NCBI GenBank assembly: GCA_051313645.2
Contig: JBNRSN020000029.1
Coordinates: 40,796,001-40,860,000 of the forward strand
From: Centroscyllium fabricii
Lineage: Eukaryota
Length of the DNA stretch: 64,000 nucleotides
Direction of reading: 5' to 3'
The notes under the pieces: model-generated
Told to the model about the DNA's origin: nothing
Databases searched by the model: none
What the model saw: the letters and a program-made list of their open reading frames with translations, nothing else
Made by a program: the position numbers and the translations under genes
Shown: piece by piece, positions 3,163-41,237 of the stretch
Numbering within the stretch: position 1 is the first letter of the stretch
How the letters are laid out: every line of letters begins with the position of its first letter

Positions 3163-3204
3163 CGGGTGATTGTGGAGCAACACTTCTCCGAGTCTTCAGA
3201 ACGT
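3163..3204 (-). CDS. 42-nt phase 1-1 exon, (D)VLKTRRSVAPQSP
   Basis: cattgtttacag|...CCCG|gtaagg; open in phase 1; same length as the exon before the B30.2 exon at 60 kb. Confidence 0.75.
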
Positions 3205-3321
3205 CTGTAAACAATGTATTATTGTAAGCTTAGATCGTGTACTGTCCATTGTGCTCAACAACTAAAAATACTTGTGATTTGTTACTTTGGTGAACAATTG
3301 ACTACGGTTTTAATGGCCATA

Positions 3322-4103
3322 AAATATTATTTAAATGGTGAAAGACTGCAGAATGCGGCTGTACAGAGTGATTTGGGTGGTATCGGACATGAAACACAAA
3401 AACTTAACTTGCAGGTGCAGCAAGTAACTCGGAAGGCAAATAGAATGTTGGCCTTTATTTCAAGGGGGATTCACTATCAAGGTAGGGAAGTCTTGCGACA
3501 TTGGTGCAGGGCGCTGGTGTGACCAAACCTAGAGTACTGCGTCCATTTTTAGTCCCCGTATTCAAAGAGGGATATATTTGCAATGGAGGCAGTTCAGAGA
3601 AGATGCACCAAGTTGAATCCTGGAATGGAATGCTTGTCTTATGAGGAAAGGTTCAGCAGTTTGGGCCTATCGACATTGGAGTTTAAAAGAATGTGTGGTG
3701 ATCTTATTGAAACATATAAGATTCTGAGAGGTGTGGACAGTGTAGCTGCTGAAATAATGTTTCCCCTCGTGTGGGTATCTAGCCCGAAGGGGCATAGTCT
3801 CAGGCTATGGGGTAGCCTTTTAAGACGCAGATGAGGAGGATTTTCTTCTCTCAGAGGGTCGTGAATCTTTGGAATTCTTTACCCCGTAAAGCTGTGAAAG
3901 CTGAGCCATTCAATATATTCAAGACTTGGATAGAGAGAGTTTTTGAGCTACAGAGGACTCAAGGGCTATGGAGAGCGGGCAGGAAAGTGGAGTTGAGGCT
4001 AAACTCAGATCAGCCATGATCTCATTAAATGGCGGAGCAGGCTCGAGGGAACGAATGCTCTACTCCTGCTCCTATTTCTTATGTTCTGATGTTCTGATGT
4101 TCT
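3322..4103 (+). mobile_element. CR1 LINE 3' fragment
   Basis: Frameshifted ORF2 C-terminus (YYLNGERLQ, RPNLEYCV, FFSQRVVNLWNSLP) and 8-mer microsatellite tail. Confidence 0.92.
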
Positions 4104-5131
4104 TAGTCTGATGGACGATTAATGGTTAACGCCCATTTTCGAAAGTAATGATCTGTAATGTTGTCCGTATCAGGACAAGTTAACTGATTTATAACCAAAT
4201 ACTTTACAAGCCTAAAAGAAAGATGCGTGAATATATTGTTTATCGTGTGACGTATGTAGGAAATGTGTGGTATCATTAAGGAAAATAATATGAATATTTA
4301 ACTTTTAATTGCGTTAAAAAGCGCCAAAAAATGATCGTTTGTGCGCTCTCAGTGGAATGGATGGGTGTACCCTTCATAGCGTACGCTAACAGCGCATGGC
4401 ATCGTCAGAAAATAAATAATCTACTTCTGACTTTGCATGGACCTAAATTGTGCACTGCGAATTGCCTACCAACTGGTATTAACCTAATTTTTTCGAAGAA
4501 TGTGAGAATTCATATTAGTTGGAATATAATGAAAATAATGGCCAATCGCACATTGGTTAGATGCTTTTACCTGACAGCAGAGGTGTGAGTACTTTTTAGA
4601 ATAAATTGTGAACATTAGATTTGATTGGTATTTCCATAATGGTGATCAGATATAGCGCATGCCTGACAGAAGATGTTCTCAGGTGACTATTATCCCAAAT
4701 GAGATTGCTATGCTGAGCAACCAGTATAATTCGTGTCAGTTATTAACAGTGCTTCAACCTTTCTCGAAGCTACTCCTAAAAGTTTCCGCACAAGTAACTG
4801 CTACGCATCTTCGACAACAATTGTTATTGCTTAGCTGTAAGAAACGGAGAATTATAGCAAACACGGTAATGGAGAACCTGCAAAATCATAAAATGAGGGA
4901 AAATGACATGAAATAGACCAGGAATGAAAAATACTGCAGGGAGAGTGAAGGAAAGCGAGCAAGTGGACAATGTGTGCTTAGTGTGTCTGAGAGAGAAACG
5001 ATTACTCGTAAAAAATTCTTTGTGTGCCAGCTTCACAGGAAATTAGAATTCTCTTATATAATCATACATAGGTAAAAACAATGCATTTGATTTTGTAAAC
5101 TTGGAAATCGTAACATGCCGTTAACATTTAC

Positions 5132-5158
5132 CTTTCTCTCTTTGCTTCAGGCTTTCCT
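5132..5158 (-). CDS. 27-nt coiled-coil microexon, (Q)ESLKQREK
   Basis: tttttctcaatag|AGGAAAGCCTGAAGCAAAGAGAGAAAG|gtaaat; clearly similar to 26249-26275, including flanks. Confidence 0.82.
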
Positions 5159-5528
5159 CTATTGAGAAAAATGTATAGTGTATAAATGATCCAAAATGCA
5201 TTGGGCCTTGAGAAGATAGTACAAAAAAATACAAGCTTTGTTGTCACGTGAATATTTGGATAAGGTGTACAGTAGCCAGCTACGATGAGCTGATGCCCTG
5301 ATCATTACAAAGCATTTTGCCATCATAAAATTTGGCTGCTATTTCCATATCAATGCTGGCTTAACATGCCGATTTTCAAGAAAGATTGTTCACACAGAAT
5401 GTGAGCGACGATCAAATAGTTTATATACGTTTTTCTTCATGTATTTTGCAGTACATAAGAGATGCACCATCAACGGGTATTATTTTAATACAAATATTTT
5501 GATGAAGTTTAGCAACGTTTTTACGCAC

Positions 5529-5564
5529 GTGTCTTTTGCAGAACTTGTTGCATGGTCTTCAGTT
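5529..5564 (-). CDS. 36-nt coiled-coil microexon, (E)LKTMQQVLQKT
   Basis: ttttgtttttcag|...GACAC|gtgcgt; phase 1-1 and open. Confidence 0.8.
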
Positions 5565-5927
5565 CTGAAAAACAAAAGCAAAGACTCGCTCTATGAAAAT
5601 TTTGTCTCGATATTTTTATCTTCGATCCACTACGTTATCGCAGTAAATCCAAGAACAGACTGATTTTAGCGATGTAGCGCATGACGCCGATGTTGCAGAA
5701 GCCACTTGGTACGTACAATGTCACACTGGTGGTGCGAAAACTCCCAAACTTCCGGCACATTTATCAGGAGCTCCATCTCTATCCAACAAGGCTTCAGCTC
5801 CTTGATGAATAGGTGACGCTAGTTCAGCCTATAGCTATATGAAAGTGAATGCATTACTATTTATCTGGACGGCGCATTATATATTAAACCTGATATTCAG
5901 ATTCTTTAAATTTGATAGAACTTGAAT

Positions 5928-8900
5928 ATAGAAACATAAAACATAGAAGATAGGAGCAAGAGTATGCTATTCAGCCCCTCGAGCCTGCTCCGCCATTCGA
6001 TGAGATCATGGCTGATCATCCATCTCAGTAACCCGTACCTGACTTCTCCCCATATCCCGTGATAGCTTAAGCTCTAAGAAATATATCTAACTGCTTCTTG
6101 AATATATTAAATGACTTGGCCTCAACTACTTTCTGTGGTAGAGAATTCCACAGGTTCACCACTCTCTGGGTGAAGAAATTGTTTCTCATCTCTGTCCTGA
6201 ATGCCCTACTACTAATCCTTAGACTGTGCCCCCTGGGTTTGAACTCTCCGACCATCAGGAACATCCTTCCTGCATCTAGTTTGTCCAGACCTGTCAGAAT
6301 TTTATAAGTTTCTATGAGATCCCCTCTCATTCTTCTAAACTCCAGCGGCGAGTATAAGCCTAATCTACCCAATCTCCCCTCATACGTCATTCCTGCCATC
6401 CCAGGTATCAGCCTTGTGAACCTTAGCTGAACTCCTTCCATGGCAAGAACATCCTTACTCAGACAAGGCGACCAAAACTGCACACAGTAGTCAAGGTGTG
6501 GTATCACCAAGGCCCTGTACAACTGCAGCAGGACATCCTTGTTCCTGTACGCAATCCCTTTCGCTATGAAGGCCAACATACCATTTGCCTTCTTCACCAC
6601 CTGCTGCACCTGCTGCACCTGCATGCTTACCTTCAACGACTGGTGCACAAGAACACCCATGTCTCGTTGCACTTCCCCGTCTCCCAATCTATTTCCATTC
6701 AGGTAATAGTCTGCCTTTCTGTTTTTGACACCAAAGTGGATAAACTCAAATTTATGCACGTTGTATTGCCTCTGCCGCGCTTCTGCCCAATAACCCAACC
6801 TATACCAAATCATCCTGGAGTTTCTCGATATCCTCCTCGCAGCACACACGCCTACCCAGCTTTGTGTCGTCTGCAAACATGCAGATATTACATCTAGTTC
6901 CCTTATTTCGATCGTTAATATATATTGTGAATAGCTGGGGTCCTAGCAGCGATCCCTGCGGTACCCATTTAGTCAGTGCCTGCCACGTGGAACAATACCC
7001 CTTTAATTCCTACTCTCAGCTTTGTGTCCGCCAACCAGTTCTCTATCCAAGTCAATATCTTGCCGCCAATCCCATGTGCCTTAACCTTAGATGCTAATCT
7101 TTTATGCGGAACCTTATCGAAAGCCTTTTGTAAGTCCAAATACACCACATATACTGGTTCTCCATAATCTATTTTCCCAGTTACATCCTCAAAAATTCCA
7201 GTAGATTAGTGAAGCATGATTTACCTTTTGTAAATCCATGTTGACTTTGTCTGATCCTGTCACTGTTTTCAAAGTGCTCATCTATTATATCCTTTATAAT
7301 GGAATCCAGCATGTTCGCCACTACCCATGCCAGGCTTTCCGCTCTGTAATTCCCCACTTTCTCTCTACCACCCTTTTTGAATAGTGGGGTAACATTAGTT
7401 ATCCTCCAATCCAACGGTGCAGTTCCAGATTCCAGCGAATGTTGAAAGATGATCAGTAATGCATCTACTATTTCTAGGGCCACTTCCTTAAGTACCCTGG
7501 GATGTAGATTTTCCGGCCCTTGCGATTTATCGGCCTTTAATCACCTCAGTTTCCCAAACACCATTTCCCTGCAAATACTGATTTCTTTCAGTTCCTCCCT
7601 TTCATCAGACCCTATGCTCTCCAACGTCTCTGGGAGGGTATGGGTGTCCTCCTTTGTGAAGACAGAACCAAGATATGCATTTAATTGTTTCTCATTCTTT
7701 TGTTCCCCATTATATCTTCCCCTGTTTCTGACTGCAAGGGACCTACACTTGATGTAACTAATCCTTTTCTCTTCAAATATGCATAAAAGCTCGTACAGTC
7801 AGTTTTTATGTTCCCTGCAAGCCTCTTTTCATATTCTATTTCCTCTTGTTAATTAATCCCTTTGTCCTCCTTTGTTGAATCCTAAACTGCTCACAATCTT
7901 CAGGGTTACCGCTTTTTCTGGCCAATTTATATACCCACTCCTTGGATGTTATGCTATCCCTAATTCCCTTGTTAGCCACGGTTGAGTCGCCCCTTTTGTT
8001 TGATTCTTATGCCAAACTGGGATGAACAAATTCTGTAGTTGTTCCATGTGGTCTTTGAATGTGTGCCATTGCCTATCCACCGTCAACCCTTTGCGTGACA
8101 TTCCCCAATCAATCCTACACAATTCGCACCTCATACCATCGTAATGTCCTTTGTTTAAATTCAGGACCCTAGTCTCTGAGTGAGCTACTTCACTCTCCAT
8201 CCTAATGAAAAATTCTATCATATTGTGATCGCTCTGACCCAAGGGGCCTCGTACAACAAGATTGCTGATTAATCCTTTCTCATTACATAATATAAAGTCT
8301 AATATGGCTGGATCTCTGGTTGGTTCCTCGACATACTATTGCAGAAAATCATGTAAACCTTCCAGGAATTCCTCCTCCACATTATTTTTACTAATTTGGC
8401 TAGCCCAATCTATATGTAAATTAAACTCACCCATGATGACAGCTGTGCCCTTACTGTATGCTTCTCAGATTTCCCTTGTAATGCCGTCCCCAACCTCCCT
8501 ATTACTGTTAGGAGGTCCATATACCACTTCCACTAACGTTTTCTGCCCCTTGATATTTCTCAGTTCTACCCATACAGATTCCACATCATCAGCGTTAATA
8601 TCCTTCCTTTCAATTGTGTTAATCCCATATTTAACCAGCAATGCTACCCCACCTCACTTTATTTTTTGCCTATTCTTCCTAAATATTTTATACTCCTGGA
8701 TGATGAGTTCCCAGCCTTGGCCACCCTGGAGCCAAGTTTCTGTAATCCCAATCAAATCATATTTGTTTACCTCTATTTCCACAGCTAATTCATCCACCTT
8801 GATCTGAATGCTCCTTGCATTAAGACACAAAGCCTTCAGGCTTGTTTTTTTCATGCTCTCAAACTTATATGAATTATTATTTCCTGTGACAATGTTTGTT

Positions 8901-10310
8901 TTAAACCATTGATTTCTCTGCCTTCTAATTTTGCTTTCCTCCTTGCTGTCTTTTGCTTTTATCCTTGTTTCCCTTTCTTCTGTCTCCCTGCTCAGGTTCC
9001 CAACCCCCTGTCACTTTAGTTTAAATCCTCCCCAACAGCATTAGCAAACACGCCCCCTAGAACATCGGTCCCGGCCCTGCCCAGGTGCAAACCGTCCCGT
9101 TTCTACTGGTCCCACCTCCCCCAGAACCGGTTCCAATGTCCAAGGAATTTGATTCCCTCCCCTTGCACCATTCTTCTAGCCACGTATTCATTTGTAATAT
9201 CCTCCTATTTCTACTCTGACTAGTACGTGGCACTGTTAGCAATCCTGAGATTACTAACTTTGCGGTCCTATATTTTAATTTAACTCCTAACTCCCTATAT
9301 TTTTCACTTAGGCCCACATCCCGTTGTTTACCTAATCGTTAGTGCCTATGTGCACCACGCCAACTGGCTGTTCGCCCTCCCCCTCCAAAATGTTCTGTAG
9401 CTGCTCTGAGACGACCTTGACCCTGGCACCAGAGAGACAACATACCACCCTGGAGTTTTTTTGCGGCCACAGACACGCCTATCTATTCCCTTTACAATTA
9501 AGTCCCCTATTACTATAGCTCTTCCCCTCTTTTTCCTCCCAGCCTGTGCAGCAGAGCCACCCATGGTGCCAAGAAATTGGCTGCTGTCATCCCCCCCCCA
9601 ACAGTATGCAAAGTGGTATATCTGTTTCAGAGTGGATGACCACAGGTGACTCCTGCACTATCTGCCTGCACCTCTTACTCTGCTTGGCGGTCACCCATTG
9701 CCTTCCTGCCTGTACAGCCTTTACCATCAGTATGACCAACGCGCCAATTTAGCTATCCACAAGGTCATCAGCATCGGGAATGCACCAGAATGCATCGATC
9801 CACTGCTCCAGCACCACAATGTGGTCTGTCAGTTTCTGCAGCTGGAGACACTTCCTGCACACAAAGTCGCCAGAGGCAACGGGAGTGTCCCTGATTTCCC
9901 ACACAGAGCAGGAGGAGCACACAACTGTGCTGAGCTGTCCTGCCATGACTTACCCTTTAGCTATTAATTAAAATTAAATGAATCCCCCCAATTTCAGTTC
10001 AATTAATTGCTATACTCAAAGCCCTTGCTTAACACTAGTCCCCGCAAGACAACAGAAACGTTAGAAACCAAAAAATATAAATTTAGAAAAATTTAGAAAG
10101 AAAATACTCACCAAACAATCACTTTCCTATTTCCTGGTGACGTCACACTTTGAATAGTTTTCCTCGCTACCCGCTGCTGAACGGGTACGACTTGCTGCTC
10201 GCCGACTTTTATAGCCGCTCCTCCTCGTCTGATCCCGCTCTGCTCTCGCGCCTCGCTGCTCGCCGACTTTTATAGCCGCTCCTCCTCCTCTGACCCCGCT
10301 CTGCTCTCGC
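5928..10310 (-). mobile_element. Near full-length decayed CR1 LINE (ORF1 zinc finger plus esterase; ORF2 endonuclease plus RT)
   Basis: ORF1 MAGQLSTVVCSSC..CRKC (9946) and RAIVIGD esterase-like motif; ORF2 CLNARSI, GITETWL, SDHNMIEF, QHGFTKGKSC and C-terminus; microsatellite tail; many frameshifts. Confidence 0.95.
10194..10310 (-). repeat. Two-copy 61-bp tandem unit at the CR1 5' end, each with TATAAAAG
   Basis: gctgctcgccgacttttatagccgctcctcctc at 10194 and 10255; TGACGTCA at 10138-10145. Confidence 0.8.
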
Positions 10311-11340
10311 TGTGTAATAAGGATTTCCCTCACATCACTCCCACATCTCTTGTCCAAAAACTTAAATCTGTGTCCCCTATTCCTTGTACCATTAACTATT
10401 GGGAACAGCCTTTCCCTGTCCAGCCTATCCAAACTCATCATAATCTTGTAGACCTCTATCAAATCACACCTCAACCTCCTTTGCTCCAATTAAAACAAAT
10501 CCAGTTGCTCCAACCTGCCCTTGTAGCTAAGATCCCCCATCCCCGGAACCATTCTGGTAAATCGCCTCTGCACCCTCTCAAGGGCTTTCACAGCCTCACT
10601 AAAGTGTGGTGGCCCGAACTGGACACAACACTCCAGTTGTGGCCTAACCAGCGCTCTATAAAGGTTCAGAATAACTTCTCTACTTTTGTAATAGAAATCT
10701 GAAATAACAACAGAAAATACTGGAAATACTGGAAGTCCAAAGATGTGCGGGTTAGGTTGACTGACCATGATAAATTGACCCTTTGTGTTAGGGGGATTGA
10801 ATATGTGGGGTTACGGGGTAGGGTGGGATATGTGTCGGTGCAGGCCCGATGGTGATCGAGGGATATGGGGACAAGGCAGGGACGGGTACTGGGTTTGGAT
10901 GATCAGCCATGATCTCATTGAATGGCAGAGCAGGCTCGAAGGGCAGAATGGCCTACTCCTGCTCCTATCTTCTACGTTTCTATGTTTACTCAGCAGGCCA
11001 GGCAGCATCCGTGGAGAGAGAAACAGAGTTAATGTTTCAGGTCTGGGACCCTTCTTCAGAACTTCTGTACCTTTGTACTCGATATCTCTATTTATGAAGC
11101 AAAGGAACACATAGGCGTTGTTAACCACTCTCTTGATATGTGCTGTCACCTTCCGGGACCTATGCACAAGAACAACAGCTCAGTCTATCAATCTACACTC
11201 TTTAAAATGTGTCGTAAATGTATATTGCCTCTCCCTGTTCATTCTGTCAAAATGCATCACCACACAATTCTCTGTATTAAATTCTAACTCCCACTTGTCT
11301 GCCCATTCTGCTAAACTTTGTATGTCCTGTTGCAGTCTAT
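10311..11340 (-). mobile_element. CR1 fragment interrupted by a Penelope end, itself interrupted by a SINE
   Basis: CR1 peptides flank 10690-11060; Penelope-like end at about 10695-10735 and 10988-11062; 5'-truncated V-SINE at about 10735-10987. Confidence 0.85.
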
Positions 11341-11961: not shown

Positions 11962-11988
11962 CCCTTTCTTTCTCTCGGTAGGCGACTT
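11962..11988 (-). CDS. 27-nt coiled-coil microexon, (E)VAYREKER
   Basis: gttcttcaacag|...GAAAGGG|gtaagt; consensus donor; phase 1-1. Confidence 0.82.
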
Positions 11989-12179
11989 CTGTTGAAGAAC
12001 AATTGCATTCATCCATAAAAAGAGAGTCATCATGCCACAAATTCGGACTGATCAAACTAATCTGTCCAAAGTTTCAAAACTTGGGGTAGGAATGATGATA
12101 ATCACCTGATGACTTGCTATTTAAATAAATATATTGCCATGTTTTAAAAAGAAATGTTACACTGCCAGGGCTCCTTGAT

Positions 12180-13668
12180 GCATGGCTGAAGACACTGGAT
12201 ACCGCAACGGCTATGGGCCCTGACAACATTCCGGCAATAGTACTGAAGACTTGTGCTCCAGAATTAGCTGCGCCCTTCGCCAAGCTGTTCTAGTACAGCT
12301 ACAACACTGGCATCTACCCGGCAATGTGGAAAATTTCCCAAGTATAGCCTGTCCACAAAAAGCAGGACAAATCCGACCCGGCCAATGACCGTCCCATCAG
12401 TCTACTCCCAATCATCAGCAAAGTGATGGAAAGTGTCATCGACAGTGTTATCAAGCGGCACTTACTCAGCAATAACCTGCTAACTGATGCCCAGTTTGGT
12501 TTTCGCCAGGGTCACTTAGCTCCTGACCTCATTACAGCCTTGTTCCAAACATGGACAAAAGAGCTGAACTCAAGAGGTGAGGCGAGAGTGACTGCCCTAG
12601 CATAAAGGAAGTTGGCTGTGGTTGTTGGAGGTCATTCATCTCAACCACAGGACATCACTGCAGGAGTTTCTCAGGGCAGTGTCCGAGGCCCAACCAGCTT
12701 CAGCTGTTTCATCAATGACATTCCCTCCATCATAAGGTCAGAAGTGGGGATGTTTGCTGATGATTGCATACTGTTCAGCACCATTCGAGACTCGTCAGAT
12801 ACTAACGCAGTCCGTGTCCATATGCAGCAAGACCTGGACAACATTCAGGTTTGGGCTGACAAGTGGCAAGTAACATTTGCACCACACAAGTGCCAGGCAA
12901 TGACCATCTCCAACAAGCTAGACTCTAACCATCTCCCCATGACATGCAATTGCATTATCATCGCTGAATCCCGCACTATCAACATCCTGGGGTTACCATT
13001 GATCAGAAACTGAACTGGACCAGCCATAAAATACTGTGGCTACAAGAGCAGGCCAGAGGCTGGGAATTCTGTGGCGAGTGTCTCACCTCCTGACTCCCCA
13101 AAGCCTTTCCAACATCCGCAAGGCACAAGTCAGGAGTGTGATGGAATACTCTCCACTTGCCTGGATGAGTGCAGCTCCAACAACACTCAAGAAGCTCGAA
13201 ACCATTCAGGATAAAGCAGGCCGCTTGATTGGCACACCATCCACCATCTTCAACATTCACTCCCTCCACCACCGGCGCACTGTGGCTGCAGTGTGTACCA
13301 TCTACAAGATGCACTGCAGCAACTCACCAAAGCTCCTTCAACAGCACCTTCCAAACCCGCGACCTCTACCACGTAGAAGGACAAGGGCAGCAGGCGCATG
13401 GGAACAGCACCACCTACAAGTTCCCCTCCAAGCCACACACCATCCTGACTTGGACCTGTATCGCCGCTCCTTCACTGTCGCTGGGCCAAATTCCTGGAAG
13501 GAATCCTGGAACTCCCTTCCTAACAACATTGTGGGTGTACCTTCCCCAGGTGGACTGCAGCGGTTAAAGAAGGCGGCTCACCACCATCTTCTCAAGGGGC
13601 AATTAGGGATGGGCACTAAATGCAGGCCTAGCCAGCCAGCGACGCCCAAATCCCATCAATGTATAAAA
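12180..13668 (+). mobile_element. Non-LTR retrotransposon RT fragment, a different family from the CR1 copies (clade uncertain), internally deleted
   Basis: QFGFRQGH, GVSQGSVRGP, MFADD, KAQVRSVMEY; the expected DxxxAFD segment is missing near 12600. Confidence 0.85.
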
Positions 13669-15624
13669 AAACTGCAGATAGCATCTTATGTTGAAAAAGG
13701 AAGCTTCTTATTTATAAATTCCATACTGCAGAATGAAAAATATGTGAAGAAATGAGGGAAAATTGAACTTAACTCGGGAAACAGACGGAAACGCATGCAA
13801 CGCTGGGTTTACAACCCACCCGATTTTACCCTCTATTGTGTAAAACCGGCGTTCCACCAGATCCCTTGGGTTTTCTGCCAAGCGGGCTAGGTTGAATATA
13901 GCCTCATTTAGAATGAAATTACACATCGTACTTTCCTACTAGTCCCTACTTGTTTTCATTGAATAACAACTAACATTGTACATTTTTCATACAATCGGAA
14001 AATGTAATCGTCCAACAACAATCAATTTAATTAATTAACATGTCCTGGTGCTTTTCTCCAATTTCTTTGCTCTCTTAGTTATTGAAAAAGGAAATGGATT
14101 GGAGTGTAAAATTAATGGCTGATTCACTATCACCCGAATTTCTTCCTCCACAAGTGCAATATTTTCTCCCTATAGTATGGTAGTTAATCTATACTTCACC
14201 TTTTACAATACTTTTGTATCCCTCCATTACATGGTTCGGAAAAGTGCATTCAATTATCCAATTCTGATCTAAGTAATCTTTTGTACATGTTCAGCGTTAA
14301 ATCTTTGCTTTTGCAGTCTATCGAAATTCGCCTTGGAGCAGTAGCACAAGATGGGCAGTGTTGAATCGTTTCCTGTTGTACACCCTATCCGATATTCAGA
14401 TCAACTGCATATTGGGTGGGACTTATAACAGGCGGCTGATGCGATGCCTCCCAATTAGCACTGCCCCCCGAGCAGAATGTCTACCCTTATGTTCCTAGTT
14501 ACAAAACCAAAGTTTCCATTTGTATTTTTATTGCTTTCGCTACTAGTGATGTTAGGTTTTTGTGATCTCCTTATCTGAATTTTAAGATGGCTCTGTGCCT
14601 CTGCAACATTTAAATTTAAATATTTCAGATGAAAACTTGAAGGTGCATTCCATTTTCTCATTTTTTTTCGAAAAAGTATGTATTTACATGACATCACTGC
14701 TTTCGTCACCTCTAGGTCGGTCCTGCACTCCTGCAGTATTTCGCAATCGTTGTCACTGTTTGCCATACCACTGAAGTTGGCGAAGCGAGCAAATATTGAT
14801 GTTGTTGCATCAATTACTACACTTACATGCATTCTGTGTAAACTAAATGGGGTCAGCTATTACACAAACCCAGTGCTGTGCCAATCTCCTCATCTATGCA
14901 GTCAGGGAAAATTCGTTTAGCTCATACATTTTTTTCTGTTTTTCAACAATCCATTCATGCTTGTTTCCACATTCACTTTAATTCTATTTGGCATTACGTC
15001 TCATAAATCAAGTTAATTGCATTTGTTTAATCGAGCAACTTATCCTTTCAATGCATTCTGTAAGGTGACCAAGCCAAAAAAAATCATGATCTAAGGTCCT
15101 GATTGAATAGTTCCTTCCTACTCTTTCGTAATTTCATCCCATTTTACAGACTCCACTAGAACTGAAATATTAAGAATTGTCTGCTGGATCGTTGACTCTT
15201 TTTGAAGAAGAAGGTCAGATTTTCTATCCTCCAGTCCTCTGGTACAATTTTGCTTTGCCAAACAATGCAACACTTAGTAAGAACCTTGATTATTTCTTCT
15301 CTAGTTTCTCTGAGGATCCTGAGGTTAACTCATCAGATCCCTTTGAAATTACTGAATTATCTTGTCTGAGTAACTCGTTTAGCATTAATTCGCCTGAAAT
15401 AATAACTTCCTGAAATTTTGCTAAGCCAAAGTTTGATGGTATCATAATCAAAATTTCAACTATCTCTGTCAAAAGTGAAGAAAATACTTATTTAACACAT
15501 GTTGAGTGCACATCTTTACTTCGTAACATTTTGCCGGTCACATAGACATTTGGCATTAAATTAAAATATTGGGAAACTTTTTCACTTTTACTGCCAGATG
15601 GAAAATTGATGGTAGCGGATAATA

Positions 15625-16040: not shown

Positions 16041-17773
16041 TCGCCTGCAGTACAACCCCGCTCGATTTTCCTCTCCATTATAAAAATAGATATCAGGCGG
16101 GTTGCAAAACGGGACGGCTGATCGGCTGCCGCACGCTTTTCGCCAGGCGATTGAAGTGACAATTCAGACCACTGACTCTGTAATGCTCCATCGCCTGTTA
16201 ACCATAAAAGAAACATAAAGTACGGAACTATTTGTGCAAGTCTAATGCGACTCAGTGTTTGTGAAAACCGTTACACGTGGCACTTATGGGAACCAGAATA
16301 TGCCTGACTTCAAGAAACGTGTCAGCATTTGTTTTCCAAAGTAGCTGCATAAATGTATGTCTTTGACTGCATGTCCAGCTTGAAGAATGATTGAAATACG
16401 ATATCTCGTCCTGCTTGAGACCAGTTTGTTAGTGTGCATGAGACCGATGTAGGATATATAGCATTTTTAGCAGGACATTCTCATCATTCTATTAATACAG
16501 GCGCATATGTTGATTATACCAAAAAACATTTGGAAAACCGATGTTGGTGGTTCATCTGTGCTTGTGTTGCCCACCTAGTAGAATATAATGGTAACTACCC
16601 TTTCTACACAACAGCAGAGACTGAATGTGACTATTATGATATTTTCACTTTGCCACAAAAGGTAAATTAGTGATTTAAATATTGTTCATACCTACAAAGC
16701 AACATCTCAAAGGACAGTTAAACACTCATTACATAAATATTTAACGCAACTAAGATTCATTAGTTTGTTTCTCACCCATATCTTTCAGAATTTTTCTTAG
16801 TTCGATTTCTAGAAAGGCAAAATCAAAACTCTTTGTGTGTTTTAATGTTAAATAAAATAAATTGGATTTATTTTGTATTCGTATTATGATTGTCTTCGCT
16901 GGTTTAAGAGGAGCCATAGATTTACCACACTTACAATAAAGAAACAAAGTTGAGTTCGAAGAAAATGTCTTTACATCGAAGACGTTTAGAATACGGAATT
17001 CTGTGTCAAAAACCGTGTGGTAGCAAAGTACCTCATTTATTTAAGGTAGCTGCGTATAAGATAAAAATTAAGGACACCAGAAGGAATCAGCAGAGGATAG
17101 ATTGTTAATTTTGCATCTAAGCGTACGAATGCTGCTGTGGGCCAGCCTCCCCTTGTGGAAATCGCCCAAATTTCAGTACCATTGACATCAAATGAAATGA
17201 AAATTGGGCAGCTATTATAACGGGCGGCCAATTCATCACATCAGTCTTACACCTGTCTGGCAAGCTAAACATTTACTGCAGCATGTAATCATTAGGCAGA
17301 GAGGGTCATGCCTTGAAAAGCACCAGTGCAAATATGACAGGGCATATGGTATGTTTCTGTGCCATTCAACAGACGATTCTGAACGGGTCGGCCGCCAGTT
17401 AAAATCGGCAGAGCGCATTAATCCATCTGCCTTGAATTGCAGTCCGTTCTTCCGTGCAAGGAGCAAGAACACCATATGAAGCCAAGAGGGTAGGGTCCTT
17501 CTTTAAACATGCAGATCGATGTCCAATGACGCCAGCGAGGACTAATACAATGTTCACTGCTGACCTGAGCAGGCTACCGGTTGTGGCTATCCCACCTGGT
17601 GATAGTTCCATCAGGTGGAGGATATAGGGAAGAGGCCTGAACAGGAACGTTTTCTTCAACTTGTTTTACCATTTCTTATGAGGCCCAGAGGAGCAGGAGC
17701 TCTATACCGTGGTTGGACGTGGTTCGTAACCTAACAGGTAACCAAATGTTGGTGGTCTGTCTGGATTTAACAG

Positions 17774-20325: not shown

Positions 20326-20361
20326 CATAAGTTTTCAGACTATCGTTCAAGTTTTCGATTT
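20326..20361 (-). pseudogene. 36-nt microexon homologue, (E)IENLNDSLKTY, lacking an in-phase GT donor
   Basis: Acceptor cacttcacttgtcag is intact; similar to 23355-23390; 3' end reads ACT TAT G|tcata, so GT is one base early. Confidence 0.7.
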
Positions 20362-23134: not shown

Positions 23135-23158
23135 CTCTTTTCTCATGGACTGTTTTTT
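23135..23158 (-). CDS. 24-nt microexon, (E)KTVHEKR (short member of the 27-nt class)
   Basis: ttttccttcaccag|...AAAAGAG|gtaaat; phase 1-1. Confidence 0.75.
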
Positions 23159-23354: not shown

Positions 23355-23390
23355 CTGTGGTTTTCAAAAATTCATTCAAGTTGTCGATTT
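23355..23390 (-). CDS. 36-nt microexon, (E)IDNLNEFLKTT
   Basis: ttttttatttcacttttcag|...CCACAG|gtaaaa; peptide resembles EIQKLNHFLEKA. Confidence 0.85.
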
Positions 23391-26248: not shown

Positions 26249-26275
26249 CTTTCTCCTGCTGTTTAAGTTTTTTCT
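26249..26275 (-). CDS. 27-nt microexon, (E)KKLKQQEK
   Basis: tgtttcctccaatag|...GAGAAAG|gtaaat; phase 1-1. Confidence 0.85.
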
Positions 26276-27841: not shown

Positions 27842-27877
27842 CTGCTTTTTCGAGAAAATGATTCAGTTTCTGAATCT
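27842..27877 (-). CDS. 36-nt microexon, (E)IQKLNHFLEKA
   Basis: ttttgctttattag|...AAAGCAG|gtgacg; phase 1-1. Confidence 0.82.
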
Positions 27878-30094: not shown

Positions 30095-30121
30095 CCGTGT
30101 CTTTTTGAATGAGAGCGTTGT
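30095..30121 (-). CDS. 27-nt microexon, (D)NALIQKDT
   Basis: ttattcccctttaacag|...GACACGG|gtaaat; phase 1-1. Confidence 0.85.
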
Positions 30122-30402: not shown

Positions 30403-30438
30403 CTTTCTCAGACAGCGCTATTTCAGTGGTGCCTTCTC
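30403..30438 (-). CDS. 36-nt microexon, (x)EGTTEIALSEK
   Basis: ttttattttttag|...GAGAAAG|gtgacg; phase 1-1. Confidence 0.82.
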
Positions 30439-31556
30439 CTAAAAAATAAAATCAAAACACTTCAGTTGTGCTGTGCCTGATTCAGTTTTCACAGCTGTTC
30501 GATGCCACAAGAGGAATTAATTTTATTGACTCTCTCGCAAATAGCTCCATCCGGAGAGCTTTGAAGAATAGTCGGTTCTAATCTTCAAAGGGAACTCACT
30601 GCCGAATTCCCCGCATCAGGTGCAAAAAGGGAAGAACTTGAGAAAGTAAATCCTTTGCTGTTACTCAACAAGTATTGACAATGATAGATGCATTGAAAGC
30701 AGAATCATTAGCCTAGAAATTTTATATCTAATACTGTATCGAAACATTTATTGGTGCTGTGTGAAACGATATAATTAAATGACGTTAATGAAAGTAGTGG
30801 CTTACAGTCAGTAAATAACAGTGTAACATTTATTGATATAAGAAAAGTACCTGATTAAACATATTCTTAGCACAATGCAGTGAAGTACACAGAGATGGTT
30901 ATTTGAGCTTCTGAAGTTAGTTGTAAGTTCCTCAGTTTCCATTTTTTAAAAGCGTAAAACACAAGAACTCAGCACGACCTTAATAGATATTCTGCCGAAA
31001 CAGAGTTTGATTTAAATAGGTTCAGCCTATTTAATATCGGTGGAGTAACCTAGAGCGCATCAACTTCACGAGTTTGTTATCAACCTTTCTAATAATAGGT
31101 TTTCATCAAATTTTGGCAGTTCAGATTTAACCCATTTGGTTTTAGAAACATGACCCTTGTCAGTATAACAGAGGTATGGGTGTTAACCTATAGATTTGAA
31201 GTTCTGGAATAGGTTAGACTATGTATTTTAGTCTGTGCGATGGGTAATGCGAACCCAGTCATTACTTGAATCTTAGAATGAGAAAGACGAAATTTAAGAG
31301 GTGCACTGATCATGGAGTGTGTATTTAAAAAGTCACACAACGTTGCAATTACAAATACAATGAGGAACAGCTTTGCAGACAACACACATGTCTTTCTGTT
31401 ATGGATATCTGGGATAGGATACACATGTAAACAGTGCTATAAATAGTAAAATCAATTCAATGAACAGAGTGTCGACCATGACATTTTCGAATTATACATA
31501 TAATATTGTCTGGGAAAAAAGCAGATGATATGCTATGAAGTCACTTTCCAGAATAC

Positions 31557-31583
31557 GTACAGCTTTCGTTCCTAGATCAGCTT
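31557..31583 (-). CDS. Candidate 27-nt microexon, (Q)ADLGTKAV
   Basis: ctttcgctgcttcag acceptor; weak donor C|gtattc with a competing GT 4 nt earlier; fills the missing slot in the 36/27 alternation. Confidence 0.4.
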
Positions 31584-33453: not shown

Positions 33454-33489
33454 GTATGCCTTTTAAACTTTCTCGCAGATATTTTAGTT
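33454..33489 (-). CDS. 36-nt microexon, (E)LKYLRESLKGI
   Basis: tttgattttcttttcag|...GGCATAC|gtgagc; phase 1-1. Confidence 0.85.
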
Positions 33490-33979: not shown

Positions 33980-34006
33980 CTTTCTCTTGCAGACTGAGTA
34001 AATCTT
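33980..34006 (-). CDS. 27-nt microexon, (E)DLLSLQEK
   Basis: ttttattcctcaacag|...GAGAAAG|gtgtct; ends GAGAAAG like other members. Confidence 0.78.
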
Positions 34007-34324
34007 CTGTTGAGGAATAAAAAAGTGTAATAAATGCGCAGTATTGACAGGGAATATATACATTTCCAACTGACATGAAACAAAGTAAAGCAAGCCCCGC
34101 ATGTAATGGAATAACGTGGATGTCATAACCTACAGCTAATACAGTGATTATTGATTTGAATGATATTGTTACAGAAAACACCATCTTGAACGCACTCCTT
34201 TGCCATTCATTCAATAGATATTTTGTAAATTTAAAGAGCCTCCTTGAAGCACCGTTAAATCCTATAAAATATGCATATAAGATTTCACAAATGCTAAAGT
34301 AAATGCTAGCTATATTATACTCAC

Positions 34325-34360
34325 CTTTATCAGTTAGAGTTTCAATTATTTTTTTCAATT
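34325..34360 (-). CDS. 36-nt microexon, (E)LKKIIETLTDK
   Basis: atctttcattcag|...GATAAAG|gtgagt; consensus donor. Confidence 0.87.
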
Positions 34361-34653
34361 CTGAATGAAAGATCCAATGCTTGAGTTTAATTATCTATCG
34401 TGAATTCAGTTTGTTTGCACATTTACTGCTTTCTTATTCCGTGTTGTACTTTAATGACCCGATATTCCTGCAGGCTGGAAATTAAAACTTGCAGTACTGC
34501 AGCTCGGCTATCTATATGACATTGCATTGTGCGCTATGGTTTCGGTATTTTGGCTCAACAGCAAAGAACAGAACATTAAGCCATAACTCTTCCCTCCCGG
34601 CAGGAACTGGCGATGTAAGATCATACATCCATTTTACAGTGCCAGGAATAAAT

Positions 34654-35415
34654 GGCCCAAAAATGAGCCTTGGAGCCGTCCTGCGTGTGTGTACCTCCAA
34701 GGTGCACTTACCCTGCGCTCCCGGCTTTCTGCAAAACTAAGATTTGAAATCTCGCGTTATGCAGCTGCTGCAAGCTCCAGGCGCCCTGCTGATGCAACTC
34801 AACGTCGTAGTTAGTGGGAGATCTCGCGCGGGACCACGTGATCTGCAGGGAGCCAATGAATGGAAGCAATCCTACATTCATAACTTACATGGAGAAATCT
34901 GTGTAAGTTATGAAAAGGAAGAGCTTCAAAAACACATCTAAACACAGAAATAAAACTAAAACAACACCACATTTTTTAACAATACTCTAACATAAATTAC
35001 CTATTTTAAAGAAAAAATCTAAATTTATTAAAAAAAAGTTAAAGTTTTTAACTGGCCTTAAAAAATATTTACCTGTCTTTAAAGTTTAAAAAAAGTAAAA
35101 ACCTGTGACTAAAAACTTAAATTCTATAAAATAAAACACTTACCTGATAAAAAGGGGTCGTTACGGCTGATATTTTTCAGCATAACATCTTCAATATTTA
35201 CCCCAATAAAAAACTCAGAAAAAAAATCGGAATTCCACTGCGCATCCCCTGGTGCGCAGAAAAACGCGCTTCAGCTGGCTGCAGCTTGCGATCCCCCGCT
35301 GGCCCTCATCGAAATTACAGGTAACACCGGGAAATAGCTGCTACCTGCAATTTTGAGCCCGTGTGCATGAGTAGCCGGCTCCAAAACGGCCCGCGCTCAC
35401 CCTAAATTTGGGGCC
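34654..35415. mobile_element. ~760-bp TIR element (GGCCC family)
   Basis: Starts ggcccaaaaat and ends aaatttggggcc; AWT flanks. Confidence 0.85.
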
Positions 35416-35991
35416 ATTGATGTTGGGCGATAATGTAAGCTGGACGTTTTCGGATCAGCTGAGCATTTTACTGCAATAGAAAAGAAAATTGGGAGAGATG
35501 TATACTAGGTGGGCAATCCGATATCGCCTGTTTTTAACTGTCGCTGCAAGACAACATTTTCCCCTCTGATTATACCCTTCATTGATGACAAGTTCAACTA
35601 AATTGGGCGGCGTGTAAATCACGGGCAGAACCTCGACCACCTGTTTTCCACACAGCCGTTAATTTGAAAATTCACCCCATATCACTCAACACACACTGGG
35701 CTAGAACCTAGAACTTTCTTGCTCTCATTGGCTGAACTATGCTTTATATAGACGGTCAAGCCATCTGTTGAGCACTTCAGTTTTTATAAATTGATTCTGT
35801 TACTCTCCATATGTATTTCTGGTACCAAATAGGAACGGCCAGATGTATTAAAGTAAATATGTGTATTTCCATACGGCCCGATATAGAACAGCACTTAATG
35901 TTGTAGCACAAATGTATTCCTGGTCGCAGTATGTTTAAGTGATTCGAGAACACGCAGGAATTGGTTTACATTGGTGAATGTGCTAAATAAT

Positions 35992-36818
35992 GGGCCCTGT
36001 TTTCCTGTGTGCCGGTTGGTGCGTGCGCTAGGACCCTGTGGACTCCTAACCGCACGCACCAACATTGCACAGAAGTCTCACCGTCAATTTCCTCCCCGTT
36101 CCTGCGCTGCGTGGCAGTCCAGCCACGCTCGGTGCGCAGTGTATGCCCCGCCCACAGATCCCAAATTTAAATTAAAAACGCCCCCAGATCCCTAATTTAA
36201 ATAAACAGATCCCGAGTCGGACCTTTGTGAGAGCAGGGAAGTGCGGAGCTGCACTCACAGACTCGGTGGGGGAGCAGCGCGGGCACAGCAGCTTCTCAGG
36301 GGAAGAAACGGTAGGTAAGTCTCCCATTTTGTCCTCTTAGATTTTTTAATAGCTAGAGAGTTAAAAATTTCAGAAATTTAACTTTAAAAATTAGCGATTT
36401 GAAACAGGTAAATTAACTTAAAATCGGGTTTGTAATTTTAAAAAAAAAACTTTAACTTAAAAATTTAACGCTACCGATCTGGCCACACTACTCCCAAAAA
36501 CTGTAAAAAATTAAAATAAAAGTAAAAAAATTAACTTACCTGCTTCAGTAACTAAATCTTCTCCCTCACGCATGAGTTTACTACTCGTTTTTCTGTGTGC
36601 AGCTTGTGAGCCAGTTGCACACGGAATCACTCTACAAAAATCACCGTTCTGACAGGAAATCCAGTGCAAGGACTTCCTGCGTTGGAAGCTGATGGGCCTT
36701 GCCCATCAGCACAGGAAATTACCGTTCGTGGGCATCCCCCGTGCTGCACACCCACGGGGCATTTCTGACCCCCCTTCGTGAGTGTGCAGCTCCTCTGCAG
36801 CACAGGAAAACAGGGTCC
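35992..36818. mobile_element. ~830-bp TIR element, related architecture with a different TIR
   Basis: gggccctgttttcctgtg / cacaggaaaacagggtcc; AT-rich core containing aggtaag motifs. Confidence 0.82.
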
Positions 36819-36876
36819 TATATACCGTTCTCCTTTTCTTTTAGCATGCGTTCTGATATAGCAAACAATAAACATT

Positions 36877-38360
36877 GGCCCAGAAATAAGGCCCGCAATG
36901 CGTGAGTACGAACGCGGTACTCACGTGCGGCCATCTGAAGTGCAGGTTGCTAGCATGCGCACAGAACCGGCACTTCCGATCCAGGGCCTGAAGGGGTCAG
37001 GAGCCACAGTGCGTTGCCCTGCGCAGCAGGAGGTGCGCAGTGAACTACCGATTTTATCACAGGTTTGTATCAGGGTAAGTATTTAAATATTTACGACTTA
37101 TAATTTGCAGCACAATGAGTGGATTTCATGAGGTAAGTCTTTATTTTATTCAATTTAAGCAACTTGTTCACACGTTTTAATTAATTTTTTTTAAAGACAG
37201 GTAAGTTGATTTTTAGGCCCGTTAAAAACTTTACATATTTTTTCAAAATTTTTATTTTTTGTTTAGAATAGCTAATTTATGTTAATGATAGTAATTTGAA
37301 AAAATGTAATGTTTAATTTTTTTTTTTAACGGTTTAGTGTGGTTTTGGGGCTCTAGTATTTCATAAGAACCTGGGTGTTCTTGTGCACCAGTCGCTGAAG
37401 GCGAGCATGCAGGTGCAGCAGGCGGTTAGGAAGGCAAATGGTGTGTTGGCCTTCATATCAAGAGGGTTCGAGTATAGGAATAAGGATACCTTACTACAGC
37501 TGTACAAGGCACTGGTTAGACCACACCTCGAGTATTGTGTACAGTTCTGGTTGCCTCGCCTAAGGAAGGATGTTCTTGCCAATGAAGGAGTGCAGCGGCG
37601 TTTCACCAGGCTGATTCCTGGAATGGCAGGAATGACCTACGAGGAGAGATTATGTAGTCTGGGCTTGTACTCGTTGGAGTTTAGAAGATTGAGAGGCGAT
37701 CTCATTGAGACGTATAAAATTCTGAAAGGTCTGGACAGGTTAGATTCAGAGAGAATGTTTCCAATGGCGGGGGAGTCCAGAACCAGGGGCCACAGTCTAA
37801 GAATAAGGGGTAAACCATTTAGGACAGACATGAGGAAGAATTTCTTCACTCAGAGAGTGGTGGGCCTGTGGAATTCCTTGCCACAGAGGGCGGTGGAGGC
37901 CAGTTCATTAAACATATTCAAGAGGGAATTGGATATATTTCTTCAAGCTAAAGGGATTAAAGTTTACGGAGAGAAGGCGGGGACGGGGTACTAGCTTGCT
38001 AAAGATCAGCCATGATCTCATTGAATGGCGGAGCAGGCTCGAAGGGCTGAATGGCCTACTCCTGCTCCTATCTTCTATGATTCTATGATTCTATGATTCT
38101 ATGATACGTTTGACAGAATTTTCTGTCAAATTTATGAATGGAGCATTCTTTGCTCCGATTAGCTCACCGTGGACCACGTGATCCTGCGGGAAGCCTTGCA
38201 CTATCTTCGCCCTTCAGTATCCCCAGCGTGGCGCGGGGGCTTTCAGCAGGCCAGAGGATCGGGATTTCAGGTGAGTGAAATCCAGAAAGGCAGGCGCGCT
38301 CCGTAACTGCACTTTGGAGGCTTGCAGTCTCAGCAAGCCTCCAACCGTAATTTCTAGTGC
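36877..38360. mobile_element. GGCCC-family TIR element split by a CR1 insertion
   Basis: Collinear with 23462-24223 on both sides of 37367-38105. Confidence 0.82.
37367..38105 (+). mobile_element. Young 5'-truncated CR1
   Basis: Uninterrupted 203-aa ORF2 C-terminus; (ttctatga)n tail. Confidence 0.95.
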
Positions 38361-38702
38361 AATAAATGCGATAAATATGAGATATTTTGCACATTGTGGA
38401 ATACATCCATGCATGACATATTAAATGTTACAACTTTGCGTATTGTGTTTCCAATTAGCACAAATAGTAAATAGTGTAGCATCTACGCAGGAATGTATTT
38501 TGTTACAGGAGACTTGTGAAACGGACTGAAACCTGGCAATAGCTTTGTAAAACAACATTGTCATTATTATAATGACGAAAAATATTTTAAGAGCAAACCA
38601 ATCTTTTTTAATGTTTGACTGGTATTGCGCTTACTGTAATGCACACATGTGACACTAGGTAGTTATGTCAAAAATGTACACAGTCAAAAGTTTTAGTATT
38701 TA

Positions 38703-39115
38703 GGGCGGCACGGTGGCACAGTGGTTAGAACTGTTGTCTCACAGCTCTGGAGACCAGGGTTCAAATCCAGCCTCGGGTACTATCTGTGTGGAGTTTGCAC
38801 ATTCTTCCCGTGTCTGCGTGGGTTTCCTCCGGGTGCTCCGGTTTCCTCCCACAGTCCAAAGATGTGCGGGTTAGGTTGATTGGCCATGATAAATTGACCC
38901 TTAGTGTTAGGGGGATTAAATATGTGGGGTTACGGGGATTGGGTGGGATATGTGTCGATGCAGGCTCGATAGGGATCGAGGGATATGGGGAGGGATATGG
39001 GGAGGGGTGCTGGGTTTGGATGATCAGCCATGATCTCATTGAATGGCGTAGCAGGCTCGAAGGGCCGAATGGCCTACTCCAGCTCCTAGTTTCTATGTTT
39101 CTATGTTTCTATGTT
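38703..39115 (+). mobile_element. Full-length V-SINE (HE1-like)
   Basis: A and B boxes, V-domain core, CR1-shared tail (tttctatg)n. Confidence 0.92.
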
Positions 39116-41105
39116 TATATTTCTAGTGGTCGAAAGGTGTGATACTTAATCCACGATTTTCATTGCCCAAAATTGAGAACAGTGAGTTGTAAGCGATTTG
39201 TGTTCGAAATCTGGAAATTCAAACCAGTGAGTTTGCATAAAAGGCGTCAGTCCGCAATGCTTGTTTCACATCTACGTGCCAATCTGATAATGTGCCCCGA
39301 TGACTATTAAACCGTTGTGGTGCCTATAGCAGGCAGCTGATCTGCAATGCCAGTTTTACATCCAAGCAGCAAGTTGAAAATCTACTCATTGAAAGCAATG
39401 GAAACAAAATTATGCAGGTGCTAAAATGGGCGTGTAACCCCCCTGACAGATTACTGCCCAAGTGGTGAAGGTGAAATTCAACCCCTTTGAGTGAAAACAG
39501 GAATAGATAACTGGATTCACTGCCACTTTCCGTGCTGTGAGCGAAAAAAACCTATGTAATACCTGTTGACAGCTTCTGAACCGTTTCAAAAATCTAGCAT
39601 TTGGCGCAGAACTCGCAAACTCTATCCAAACGATTACTAACAATGGAGGCTGGGGAGAAGGAAGTTTTTGATGTTCTTTGGAAAGTCAATACATATTACT
39701 AAAATGTTAATTTATGTAATGGAAATAAGCTATAAATGCTAAAAGATGACATATTATCAGGTGGTTTAATTGCTACAGTAGCCTCTATTGTACAACTGGA
39801 GTAAATTCCGTCCAGCCAGATTTCCTCCGTTTCAGTCTTTTCAATGAAGCAGACCAATAATGCAAACATAGTTTTGTTAATTTCATATACGGAACATATA
39901 CCATTAACCATTTTGCGTATATTGAGGGTCAAAGAAAAATCCATTCGCTTTTGAGCTGGTGTTTTCTTCTCGTCAAATCAACAATCAAAATCTAAATTCC
40001 CATATCCTAATAAATAAATTGAATGCCTGAATTCTATTAAATACTTTAATAAAGACTAGTAACAATCCATTGCCTTGATCTATAACTATTAATCTCCCTA
40101 CAGTCGGAAATATACAAAACAAAGTAATGCATAGCAGACACATTTTTTAGAAGTAGAAACTACATTAAAACATTTGAAGAAAGAGAAATGACAAATTATG
40201 ATAGAATTCTTTAACTTACTTTGGAGCCTAAAACGGGCGTAGTAAATCGACTGCACATAATTGGAAGAGCCGATTTTAACAACTGGTTGAGGCGCGGTTG
40301 ACAAGTTGAAAATGCATCCCAATAAGCTACATTGTCATGGGTAACAACTTGTTTGAATACCGAACAAATCAATAAAACGGAATGATCTTCTCAGTGTTTT
40401 TACACATTTTAATGTTATTAAGAAAGCAGTAGTTCATTCTTATGACATGTCTCTGTTCCTCCTGGGCAGCACTCAGACAGATGGGATCGTTTGCCTTTCA
40501 AAGAAATGGTTAGCCATTACCTTCACACTAGTATGAGTCCTGCGGTGAAAATGAGAATCTACTGATTGGCTGAGAACTAGATAACTGTATCCTAACAGAG
40601 ATTACTGACGGGAGGGGGGCGAACCTTCCAAATGGATGGAAAATACAAACGGAATAGAGAGAGATTTTGGCAGGGAATCTCTCTGTTCCTCCTGGACCTC
40701 AGAACACTTCATTGCAATTAATTTATGTCAAAGCATGGTTGATGGATCGGTTACATTGTTAAATTTCTGCCTTGTCGTGAAAATTGGTTGTGTGAGGTAA
40801 AATTCAATTTCGACAGAGGCGCCAAATGGTACGTAGCCCAATGGCCATTTGTTATACACCCCGCCCGAATTTCCATTTAAAGCAAAATATAATGACAGCC
40901 GATCCGCTATTCCGTTTGCTTCCCAGTGAAGTTAAACGTCACTGTCCTCCTGAAACACCATTCTATAAGCTACCGGATTGTTATTTCCATTTATCCGCAA
41001 TGCCAGTTTTTACGCTGGTTGCAAGTTGAAAGTTTACCCCAATCATACTTTCAGTCACATATCAGATTTCCCGTGAATTTTGACTTGTTTCCTGTATGCA
41101 ATTAC

Positions 41106-41237
41106 CTTTTGCACTCATGGCTTTGTACTTCGCTTCAACTTCGCCAACGTACATTTGGCTCGAATTGGTTTCTTCAAAGGGCTCTGTTCCAATGATGATG
41201 TACTCATCAACAGGTGCTGCCATTTCAAAATCAACAA
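41106..41237 (-). CDS. 132-nt phase 1-1 exon, VVDFEMAAPVDEYIIIGTEPFEETNSSQMYVGEVEAKYKAMSAK; possible start exon (ATG 41223)
   Basis: ctgttttatccag|...GCAAAAG|gtaatt; only the phase-1 frame is open; ATG in GAAATGG context; joins in frame to 34360. Confidence 0.78.

Follow-up and report, generated by a model that had tools for sequence, protein, structure and literature searches.

A microexon gene of Centroscyllium fabricii encoding a heptad-repeat coil and very probably ending in a B30.2 domain

Results

A series of very small exons has been analysed on the minus strand of a stretch of 64,000 nucleotides (nt) of Centroscyllium fabricii, located at positions 40796001-40860000 of contig C811 (analysis label) in a genome of 7.2 Gb. 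The whole stretch is called the window, with positions 1-64,000. These exons almost certainly belong to a real gene, named gene A, and the window would hold the first 17 exons of this gene, in which at least 107 in-frame microexons would encode a heptad-repeat rod leading to a B30.2 domain. Gene A is read as spanning about 570 kb and running about 530 kb past the window, instead of the 38 kb or so proposed in a preliminary description of this DNA. Its upstream paralog is named gene B, and C and D are further tandem copies.

Counterparts of 15 of the 16 small window exons were found in order in RefSeq proteins of catsharks, in agreement with the spliced gene that had been proposed. On Scyliorhinus torazame XP_072329363.1 (P0009) 14 of the 16 fell into place in the right sequence, almost all of them directly adjacent and separated by a single split codon, and the fifteenth counterpart, that of the 24-nt exon, was found in the Scyliorhinus canicula model XP_038671248.1 (P0017). 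The window model aligned to P0017 with 109 of 197 residues identical and a score of 480 (maxima of 121 in 200 residue shuffles and 313 in 200 exon-order shuffles), and to P0009 with 113 of 197 identical and a score of 475 (maxima of 123 for residue and 349 for exon-order shuffles). Since exons of this kind are unlikely to be predicted ab initio, we infer that the catshark models rest on RNA junctions. Orthologs or close paralogs were found in catsharks, electric ray and bamboo shark (XP_038671248.1, XP_038671249.1, XP_038673008.1, XP_072329363.1, XP_072329362.1, XP_069775418-28 and XP_043533989.1). The RefSeq fragments are all partial and carry automatic names (CENP-E-like, zinc-binding protein A33-like, golgin A6-like, BTN1A1-like). 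A search of the Atlas with the N-terminal coil returned generic coil matches only.

Exon detection was carried out with a generic scan for AG..GT segments, followed by a splice-matrix scan that added weaker exons. The matrices were trained on these same exons and their scores are therefore partly circular; the generic scan and the rule of the shuffle test were untrained, and the plus strand was used as control. The shuffle control suggested with the preliminary description and a strand control came out in favor of the gene, with nine stop-free 27/36-nt segments on the minus strand at positions 3100-41300 and one on the plus strand, against a mean of 0.99 and a maximum of 5 in 100 local dinucleotide shuffles.

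The exons of the window are the following (detected by AG/GT scan and catshark alignments where no other remark is given):

41106..41237, minus: first coding exon of 132 nt, with a 14-nt leader, ATG and 39 codons
36826..36852, minus: 27-nt microexon, splice scores 17/6, maps to P0009 and P0017
34325..34360, minus: 36-nt microexon, AG/GT scan and catshark alignments, abuts its neighbor in the catshark model
33980..34006, minus: 27-nt microexon
33454..33489, minus: 36-nt microexon
31557..31583, minus: doubtful 27-nt microexon, donor score -2.1, at a 9-residue gap in the catshark alignments
30403..30438, minus: 36-nt microexon
30095..30121, minus: 27-nt microexon
27842..27877, minus: 36-nt microexon
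26249..26275, minus: 27-nt microexon
23355..23390, minus: 36-nt microexon
23135..23158, minus: 24-nt microexon, with an 8-residue counterpart in P0017, unplaced on P0009
20326..20361, minus: broken 36-nt exon, acceptor intact (score 8), donor -10
16776..16808, minus: 33-nt microexon, one codon short of its catshark counterpart
11962..11988, minus: 27-nt microexon, matrix scan and catshark alignments
5529..5564, minus: 36-nt microexon
5132..5158, minus: 27-nt microexon
3163..3204, minus: 42-nt exon with proline, internal

The corrected order is 132, 27, 36, 27, 36, (27, doubtful), 36, 27, 36, 27, 36, 24, (36, broken), 33, 27, 36, 27 and 42 nt, all in phase 1, and the 17-exon model reads 207 codons with no stop. 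The thirteen phase-1 AG/GT microexons of the preliminary description are all present between its 132-nt and 42-nt exons, as is its broken fourteenth element at 20326-20361, where an in-phase GT donor is absent. Its list overlooked the exons at 36826-36852 and 16776-16808, included the doubtful one at 31557-31583, and ended with the 42-nt exon, which is in fact internal, with the next exon 26-52 nt past the window edge; this proline-containing exon is likely a hinge. The exon at 31557..31583 is considered doubtful because its donor is poor and its counterpart is absent from both catshark models, and a 39-nt form ending at 31545 has a better donor. Both catshark models contain a 12-residue piece at the site of the broken exon, which is likely skipped.

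Extent of gene A and its probable B30.2 end

A microexon catalogue of 40.271-40.837 Mb contains 107 exons on the minus strand (65 of 27 nt, 23 of 36 nt and 13 of 24 nt) versus three on the plus strand, and the 107 join into 1,014 codons with no stop. Homology adds up to 17 weaker exons (union 124, 3,462 nt), and microexons account for about 3,460 of the about 4,120 coding nt (about 85%). The following exon was found at the other end of the gene:

C811:40270088-40270621: intact terminal B30.2 exon of gene A (Pfam SPRY, expectation value E 3.6e-9; PRY model unmatched)

The closest database relative of this domain is the S. canicula protein XP_038671249.1 (P0001), a protein of 945 amino acids (aa) with a coil and SPRY, with 56% identity in the domain; conservation across sharks is 56-63%, and the best solved-structure match is BTN3A1 (E 4.7e-24). 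Chaining of gene A exons placed 42 of them (32 abutting) on residues 61-569 of P0009, with a score of 917 versus 308-450 in 10 block shuffles, and 54 (34 abutting) on residues 1-775 of P0001, with 1023 versus 465-696 in 10 block shuffles. Residues 570-683 of P0009 overlap residues 1-114 of P0001, and these 114 residues therefore bridge the two halves into a composite catshark protein of about 1,490 aa. The alignments point to one continuous transcript of about 1,400-1,500 codons, and gene A very probably ends in the B30.2 domain. No RING, B-box or immunoglobulin (Ig) family was detected in 123 minus-strand open reading frames (ORFs) of at least 40 aa in the interval separating the ATG exon from the 3' end of gene B, and no Ig or zinc-finger family exceeded the cut-off in P0001, P0009, P0017, P0020 and P0013. 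Without RING, Ig or membrane domain, gene A is therefore neither a TRIM nor a butyrophilin gene.

Two further features were observed inside gene A. A 36-nt exon with a GC donor (C811:40657598-40657633, minus) maps well and abutting on a catshark protein, and C811:40681881-40703717 contains a recent tandem duplication (offset 12,344 nt, >90% identity over about 9.5 kb) that copies at least one candidate 27-nt exon.

First coding exon and N-terminal motif

The coding part of the exon at 41106..41237 starts M-A-A-P-x-D-E-Y-x-x-I-G-T-E. These first 14 residues are nearly invariant, with DEYxxI identical in the five aligned N-termini, and the remainder of the exon is about half identical. The start methionine is common to the models of three of four relatives, and one S. 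torazame model has a 22-residue N-terminal extension without family match. The leader is of 14 nt in gene A versus 13 nt in gene B and the distance from ATG to donor is of 118 nt in both, so that this ATG is the start. No second ATG exon was found between the window and 40.496 Mb. When proteins were searched with only the 43-aa first exon, none of five candidates scored. A two-sequence profile of this exon and its paralog retrieved six proteins, three aligned at residues 1-39 and three (P0019, P0021 and P0022) matching internally over several stretches, reaching S. canicula and S. torazame proteins with the same start motif; the coil search reached more. Two other interpretations of the ATG exon were rejected, namely a decayed B30.2 start (no alignment) and an internal coding exon of gene B (the leader frame differs between paralogs and the B30.2 remnant of gene B lies upstream).

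The N-terminus is acidic and has no hydrophobic run. By sequence match alone, DEYxxI fits the consensus of the LC3-interacting region (LIR), F/W/Y-x-x-L/I/V with acidic positions -2/-1, and it lies in a non-coil region. The core of gene A, YIII, equals the NBR1 core as given in a passage of a preprint (bioRxiv 10.1101/2024.05.09.593318).

Upstream of the ATG exon, the following stretch is likely a promoter or one or more non-coding exons:

45284..46894, minus: non-coding stretch, about 70% identity with the paralog B region

Another non-coding stretch of 410 nt, 65% identical between window 49249-49614 (minus) and C811:41113007-41113413, lies upstream of both ATG-exon regions. No coding match was found for it, and the likeness stops exactly at AATAAA in both copies; it is possibly the distal poly(A) region of an upstream gene or a co-duplicated regulatory element. 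The S. torazame protein GCB74337.1 (P0018) shares the N-terminal exon and continues, in place of a coil, with an acidic stretch in which acidic aromatic-x-x-Ile motifs occur two more times; it may be a misprediction or a variant.

Heptad rod and exon skipping

Hydrophobic residues peak at a period of 3.5 residues in the gene A model and in three catshark proteins, which bears out the periodic heptad coil described previously. Positions 2, 5 and 9 of the 36-nt exons are hydrophobic in 73, 88 and 73% of cases (n=51), position 4 of the 27-nt exons is hydrophobic in 59% and their position 7 is mostly Lys. The pair of 36 and 27 nt therefore corresponds to three heptads, with core positions 2, 5, 9, 12 and 16. 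This pair had been proposed as an alternating module. A near-identical 27+36 pair is indeed present twice in S. torazame, but strict alternation is only local: among the 106 neighbor pairs of gene A, 27-to-27 is the commonest (34), with 20 of 27-to-36 and 19 of 36-to-27, and the 63-nt module is therefore one of several building blocks. Single exons have been gained or lost between species. The rod has grown through tandem duplications that copied exons singly, in pairs or as larger blocks.

Of 106 joins, 66 have Glu at the split codon, and no stop arises in 5,671 possible downstream exon joins, as expected from the earlier claim that every exon can be skipped in frame. Given the phase-1 symmetry and the donors ending in G, any gain, loss or skip of an exon is therefore frame-neutral, which likely explains the very large number of exons. 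The heptad register survives only losses of 7 residues or multiples thereof, and a skip of 9 or 12 residues shifts it. Nine isoforms of the ray Narcine bancroftii display five distinct internal deletions of 8, 8, 11, 12 and 23 residues, those of 11 and 12 residues resembling single exons of gene A and none being of 21. The idea that coil length is tuned by splicing is thus only half shown: microexon skipping occurs in annotation, as loss of single pieces of 8-12 residues, and regulated length control is unproven.

Along the lines of the micro-exon genes (MEGs) of schistosomes, selection could have acted on combinatorial skipping itself, which would yield a variety of rod lengths or binding surfaces. 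The stop-free joins are compatible with such a device, as are the ray isoforms, in which four of the five deletions are of 8-12 residues, and the Atlas clusters of proteins that combine a long coil with PRY/SPRY, with isoform names up to X51. However, five deletions over about 50 exons could be splicing noise on weak microexons, and skips break the heptad register, so that this explanation is considered distinctly improbable.

Gene array, paralogs and MHC context

About four genes of this kind form a 1.9-Mb array from 42.211 to 40.27 Mb of C811, which was surveyed as contiguous DNA at 40.20-41.56 Mb and as samples above that. The paralogous ATG exon of gene B is at 41.0997 Mb and is of the same type as that of gene A, and the two genes have introns in common, at about 70-80% identity. 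The 3' end of gene B lies in the window:

59510..60029, minus: broken B30.2 exon, 3' end of gene B, with an in-frame TAG and later frameshifts

This remnant shows 52% identity (E 6e-30, one TAG), and 457 of 619 aligned bases match the B30.2 exon region of gene A. The ratio of nonsynonymous to synonymous substitution rates (dN/dS) was 0.53 (bootstrap 0.35-0.81) for 25 pairs of paralogous A and B exons whose flanks are homologous, after one of 26 was dropped for low flank identity. For gene C, whose microexons stop at C811:41105800-41137200, no B30.2 exon was found, nor was its ATG exon found in the stretches surveyed. At the end of gene D, at 42.045 Mb, the B30.2 is intact. A further related B30.2 exon, also intact, is located at C1233:1629917-1640654 (minus), with only three candidate microexons in the 70 kb upstream, and this copy is possibly a short family member.

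In a B30.2 tree of 15 rows (midpoint root, no butyrophilin rows, with a long-branch warning), gene A forms a group with the domains of catshark and bamboo shark (100/100), and A, D and the C1233 copy are apart (100/99) from eight genomic TRIM-type copies and one frog TRIM. Matches to class I of the major histocompatibility complex (MHC) lie on C811 in 29 of 30 cases, at 0.7-21 Mb, about 20 Mb or more from the array, and a search for MHC class II gave no match anywhere. The B30.2 end and the MHC class I contig are consistent with the architectural kinship to butyrophilin and chicken BG genes that had been suggested.

Many TRIM-type B30.2 exons are present at 15-21, 31-35 and 44-57 Mb of C811 and on contigs C25, C125 and C800; scoring of 150 out of the 549 candidates gave a match in every case. 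Retroelement fragments of the long interspersed nuclear element (LINE) type are found in introns and intergenic DNA of the window (6067-8335, 12606-13755, 37338-37994, 47968-48351, 53389-54439, 55114-55752 and 61119-61757), and three window ORFs match reverse transcriptase. An open LINE-type ORF of 965 codons at C811:41190276-41193170 (plus), within the span of gene C, suggests a young insertion.

Alternative gene models

Several observations weigh against gene A as a single functional gene with a docking motif and a B30.2 end. Splicing in C. fabricii rests on the annotation of other species. In catsharks the ATG exon is followed by a 36-nt exon for which no counterpart was found in the window, one window exon (20326..20361) is broken, and a dN/dS of 0.53 is only moderate constraint, from pairs picked beforehand at >60% identity. 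Mapping to catshark proteins is weak in mid-gene (about 40.50-40.65 Mb), and 28 of the 107 catalogued exons are unplaced on them. Both catsharks are annotated as two pieces, the ray model stops without B30.2, and no full-length protein was found among database models of up to 2,000 aa. With respect to the motif, acidic copies also occur by chance, one inside the ray coil and two in the acidic tail of P0018, and DEYxxI fits tyrosine-kinase/SH2 or YxxPhi sorting sites equally well.

The two RefSeq models in both catsharks, the missing full-length protein and the weak mapping mid-gene would also be expected if the window exons formed a shorter coil-only gene, or a dominant short isoform, separate from the B30.2-bearing part. 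Nevertheless, the point of the split is not the same from one species to another, and the models share an overlap of 114 residues, their ends being non-coil tails that resemble intron read-through; moreover, the microexons go on with a largest gap of 33 kb, and paralog B joins the same-type ATG exon to the middle microexon block. A separate coil-only gene is therefore quite unlikely. A decay of the locus in C. fabricii, leaving the exon array as a relic, could account for the broken and the missing exon of the window and for the broken B30.2 of paralog B. Loss of a symmetric exon is frame-neutral, however, and the 107 catalogued exons of gene A join with no stop and have strong splice sites and an intact B30.2 frame, which makes decay very improbable.

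Discussion

Proposed function

No description of a giant microexon B30.2 gene family was found in the open-access literature. Its architecture is extreme: about 85% of a frame of roughly 1,400 codons lies in exons of 24-36 nt that extend over 570 kb, and about four such genes follow one another within 1.9 Mb. In all four genera in which the gene was found, standard annotation has split it into pieces under wrong names. The gene offers a natural system for studying microexon splicing outside neurons and the tolerance of coiled coils to register shifts.

The favored proposal, from a layout of docking motif, long rod and ligand-binding head, is that the product could be a cytosolic coiled-coil tether or adaptor, for and against which the chances appear evenly balanced. 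The B30.2 end would bind a cargo protein and the acidic DEYxxI end would dock, separated by a rod, at most about 170-190 nm long, that would be interrupted by proline/glycine hinge exons and would dimerise. ATG8 or FIP200 may be the first guess for the motif partner, with an SH2 or AP-2-type partner as second, and the role may be in immunity or trafficking. In its most specific form, these genes would encode MHC-linked, ubiquitin-independent autophagy or trafficking receptors of cartilaginous fish, with the LIR and the B30.2 cargo head up to about 180 nm apart on a rod of at least 120 microexons, and with reach and register set by regulated skipping; this detailed scheme is unlikely as it stands.

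A structural or cytoskeletal rod is a possible but doubtful alternative, in which the coil would lie along actin or form filaments, and the B30.2 and the N-terminal motif would merely anchor it. The coil makes up about 85% of the coding sequence, and a precedent in the same superfamily is the chicken zipper protein, described in a passage of PMC5938342 as a soluble BG tail that displaces tropomyosin. The gene B microexons are constrained despite its broken B30.2, and no B30.2 exon was found for gene C, so that the coil can persist without the head. Frequent gains, losses and skips of single exons would, however, shift the heptad register, as opposed to the fixed actin repeat of tropomyosin, and the B30.2 is itself conserved across sharks at the 56-63% given above.

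Comparison with known systems

For a tether or adaptor with a B30.2 head, the enterophilins of guinea pig offer a likeness by architecture only, since they are long leucine-zipper proteins with B30.2 and no membrane segment, of about 65 kDa and up to about 30 heptads, and gene A likewise combines a long heptad stretch with B30.2 and no membrane segment. Enterophilin-1 is reported to bind sorting nexin 1 (cited in PMC13749957). Chordate clusters in the ESM Atlas contain PRY/SPRY proteins of 1,277-1,802 aa with automatic names (scores 0.93, 0.91 and 0.76), so that long forms of a similar kind occur in annotation elsewhere.

TRIM proteins with PRY-SPRY share coil and B30.2 with gene A, which differs from them in having no RING or B-box and a coil about ten times longer. 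Some proteins of the TRIM5, TRIM20 and TRIM21 type are described in PMC4576868 and PMC6254359 as autophagy receptors, combining SPRY target capture with ATG8 binding. Schistosome MEGs have most of their coding sequence in micro-exons that are skipped in frame, and their products are small and mostly secreted, with signal peptides (PMC4015677, in part). Gene A resembles them in having most of its coding sequence in symmetric microexons that can be skipped in frame, and differs in its acidic N-terminus without hydrophobic run and its B30.2 of cytosolic type; the two are unrelated in sequence and taxon.

Butyrophilins (BTN1-3, BTNL) resemble gene A in their heptads followed by a terminal B30.2 and in their linkage to the MHC (PMC4046983, in part), whereas gene A has no signal peptide, Ig domain or membrane segment, and its coil has more than 1,100 residues where theirs has a few heptads. 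Chicken BG genes, according to passages of PMC5938342 and PMC4046983, have many tiny exons with a split first codon, a variable exon number and a tandem cluster near the MHC, and gene A shares with them the coil on many tiny split-codon exons that vary in number, and the tandem cluster. BG genes have 13-37 exons of 21 (18/24) nt, an IgV domain and a membrane segment, and no B30.2; gene A, in contrast, has at least 107 exons of 27/36/24 nt, of which one of 107 is of 21 nt, and is of cytosolic type with B30.2. Gene A is thus comparable to a butyrophilin or BG protein reduced to its cytoplasmic half and lengthened many-fold, as far as these are described in parts of PMC5938342, PMC4046983 and PMC12841164. 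It has a long tail on small exons, as in chicken BG, together with the B30.2 head known from butyrophilins, minus the membrane half, and therefore bears on how the modules of this superfamily were assembled near the early MHC.

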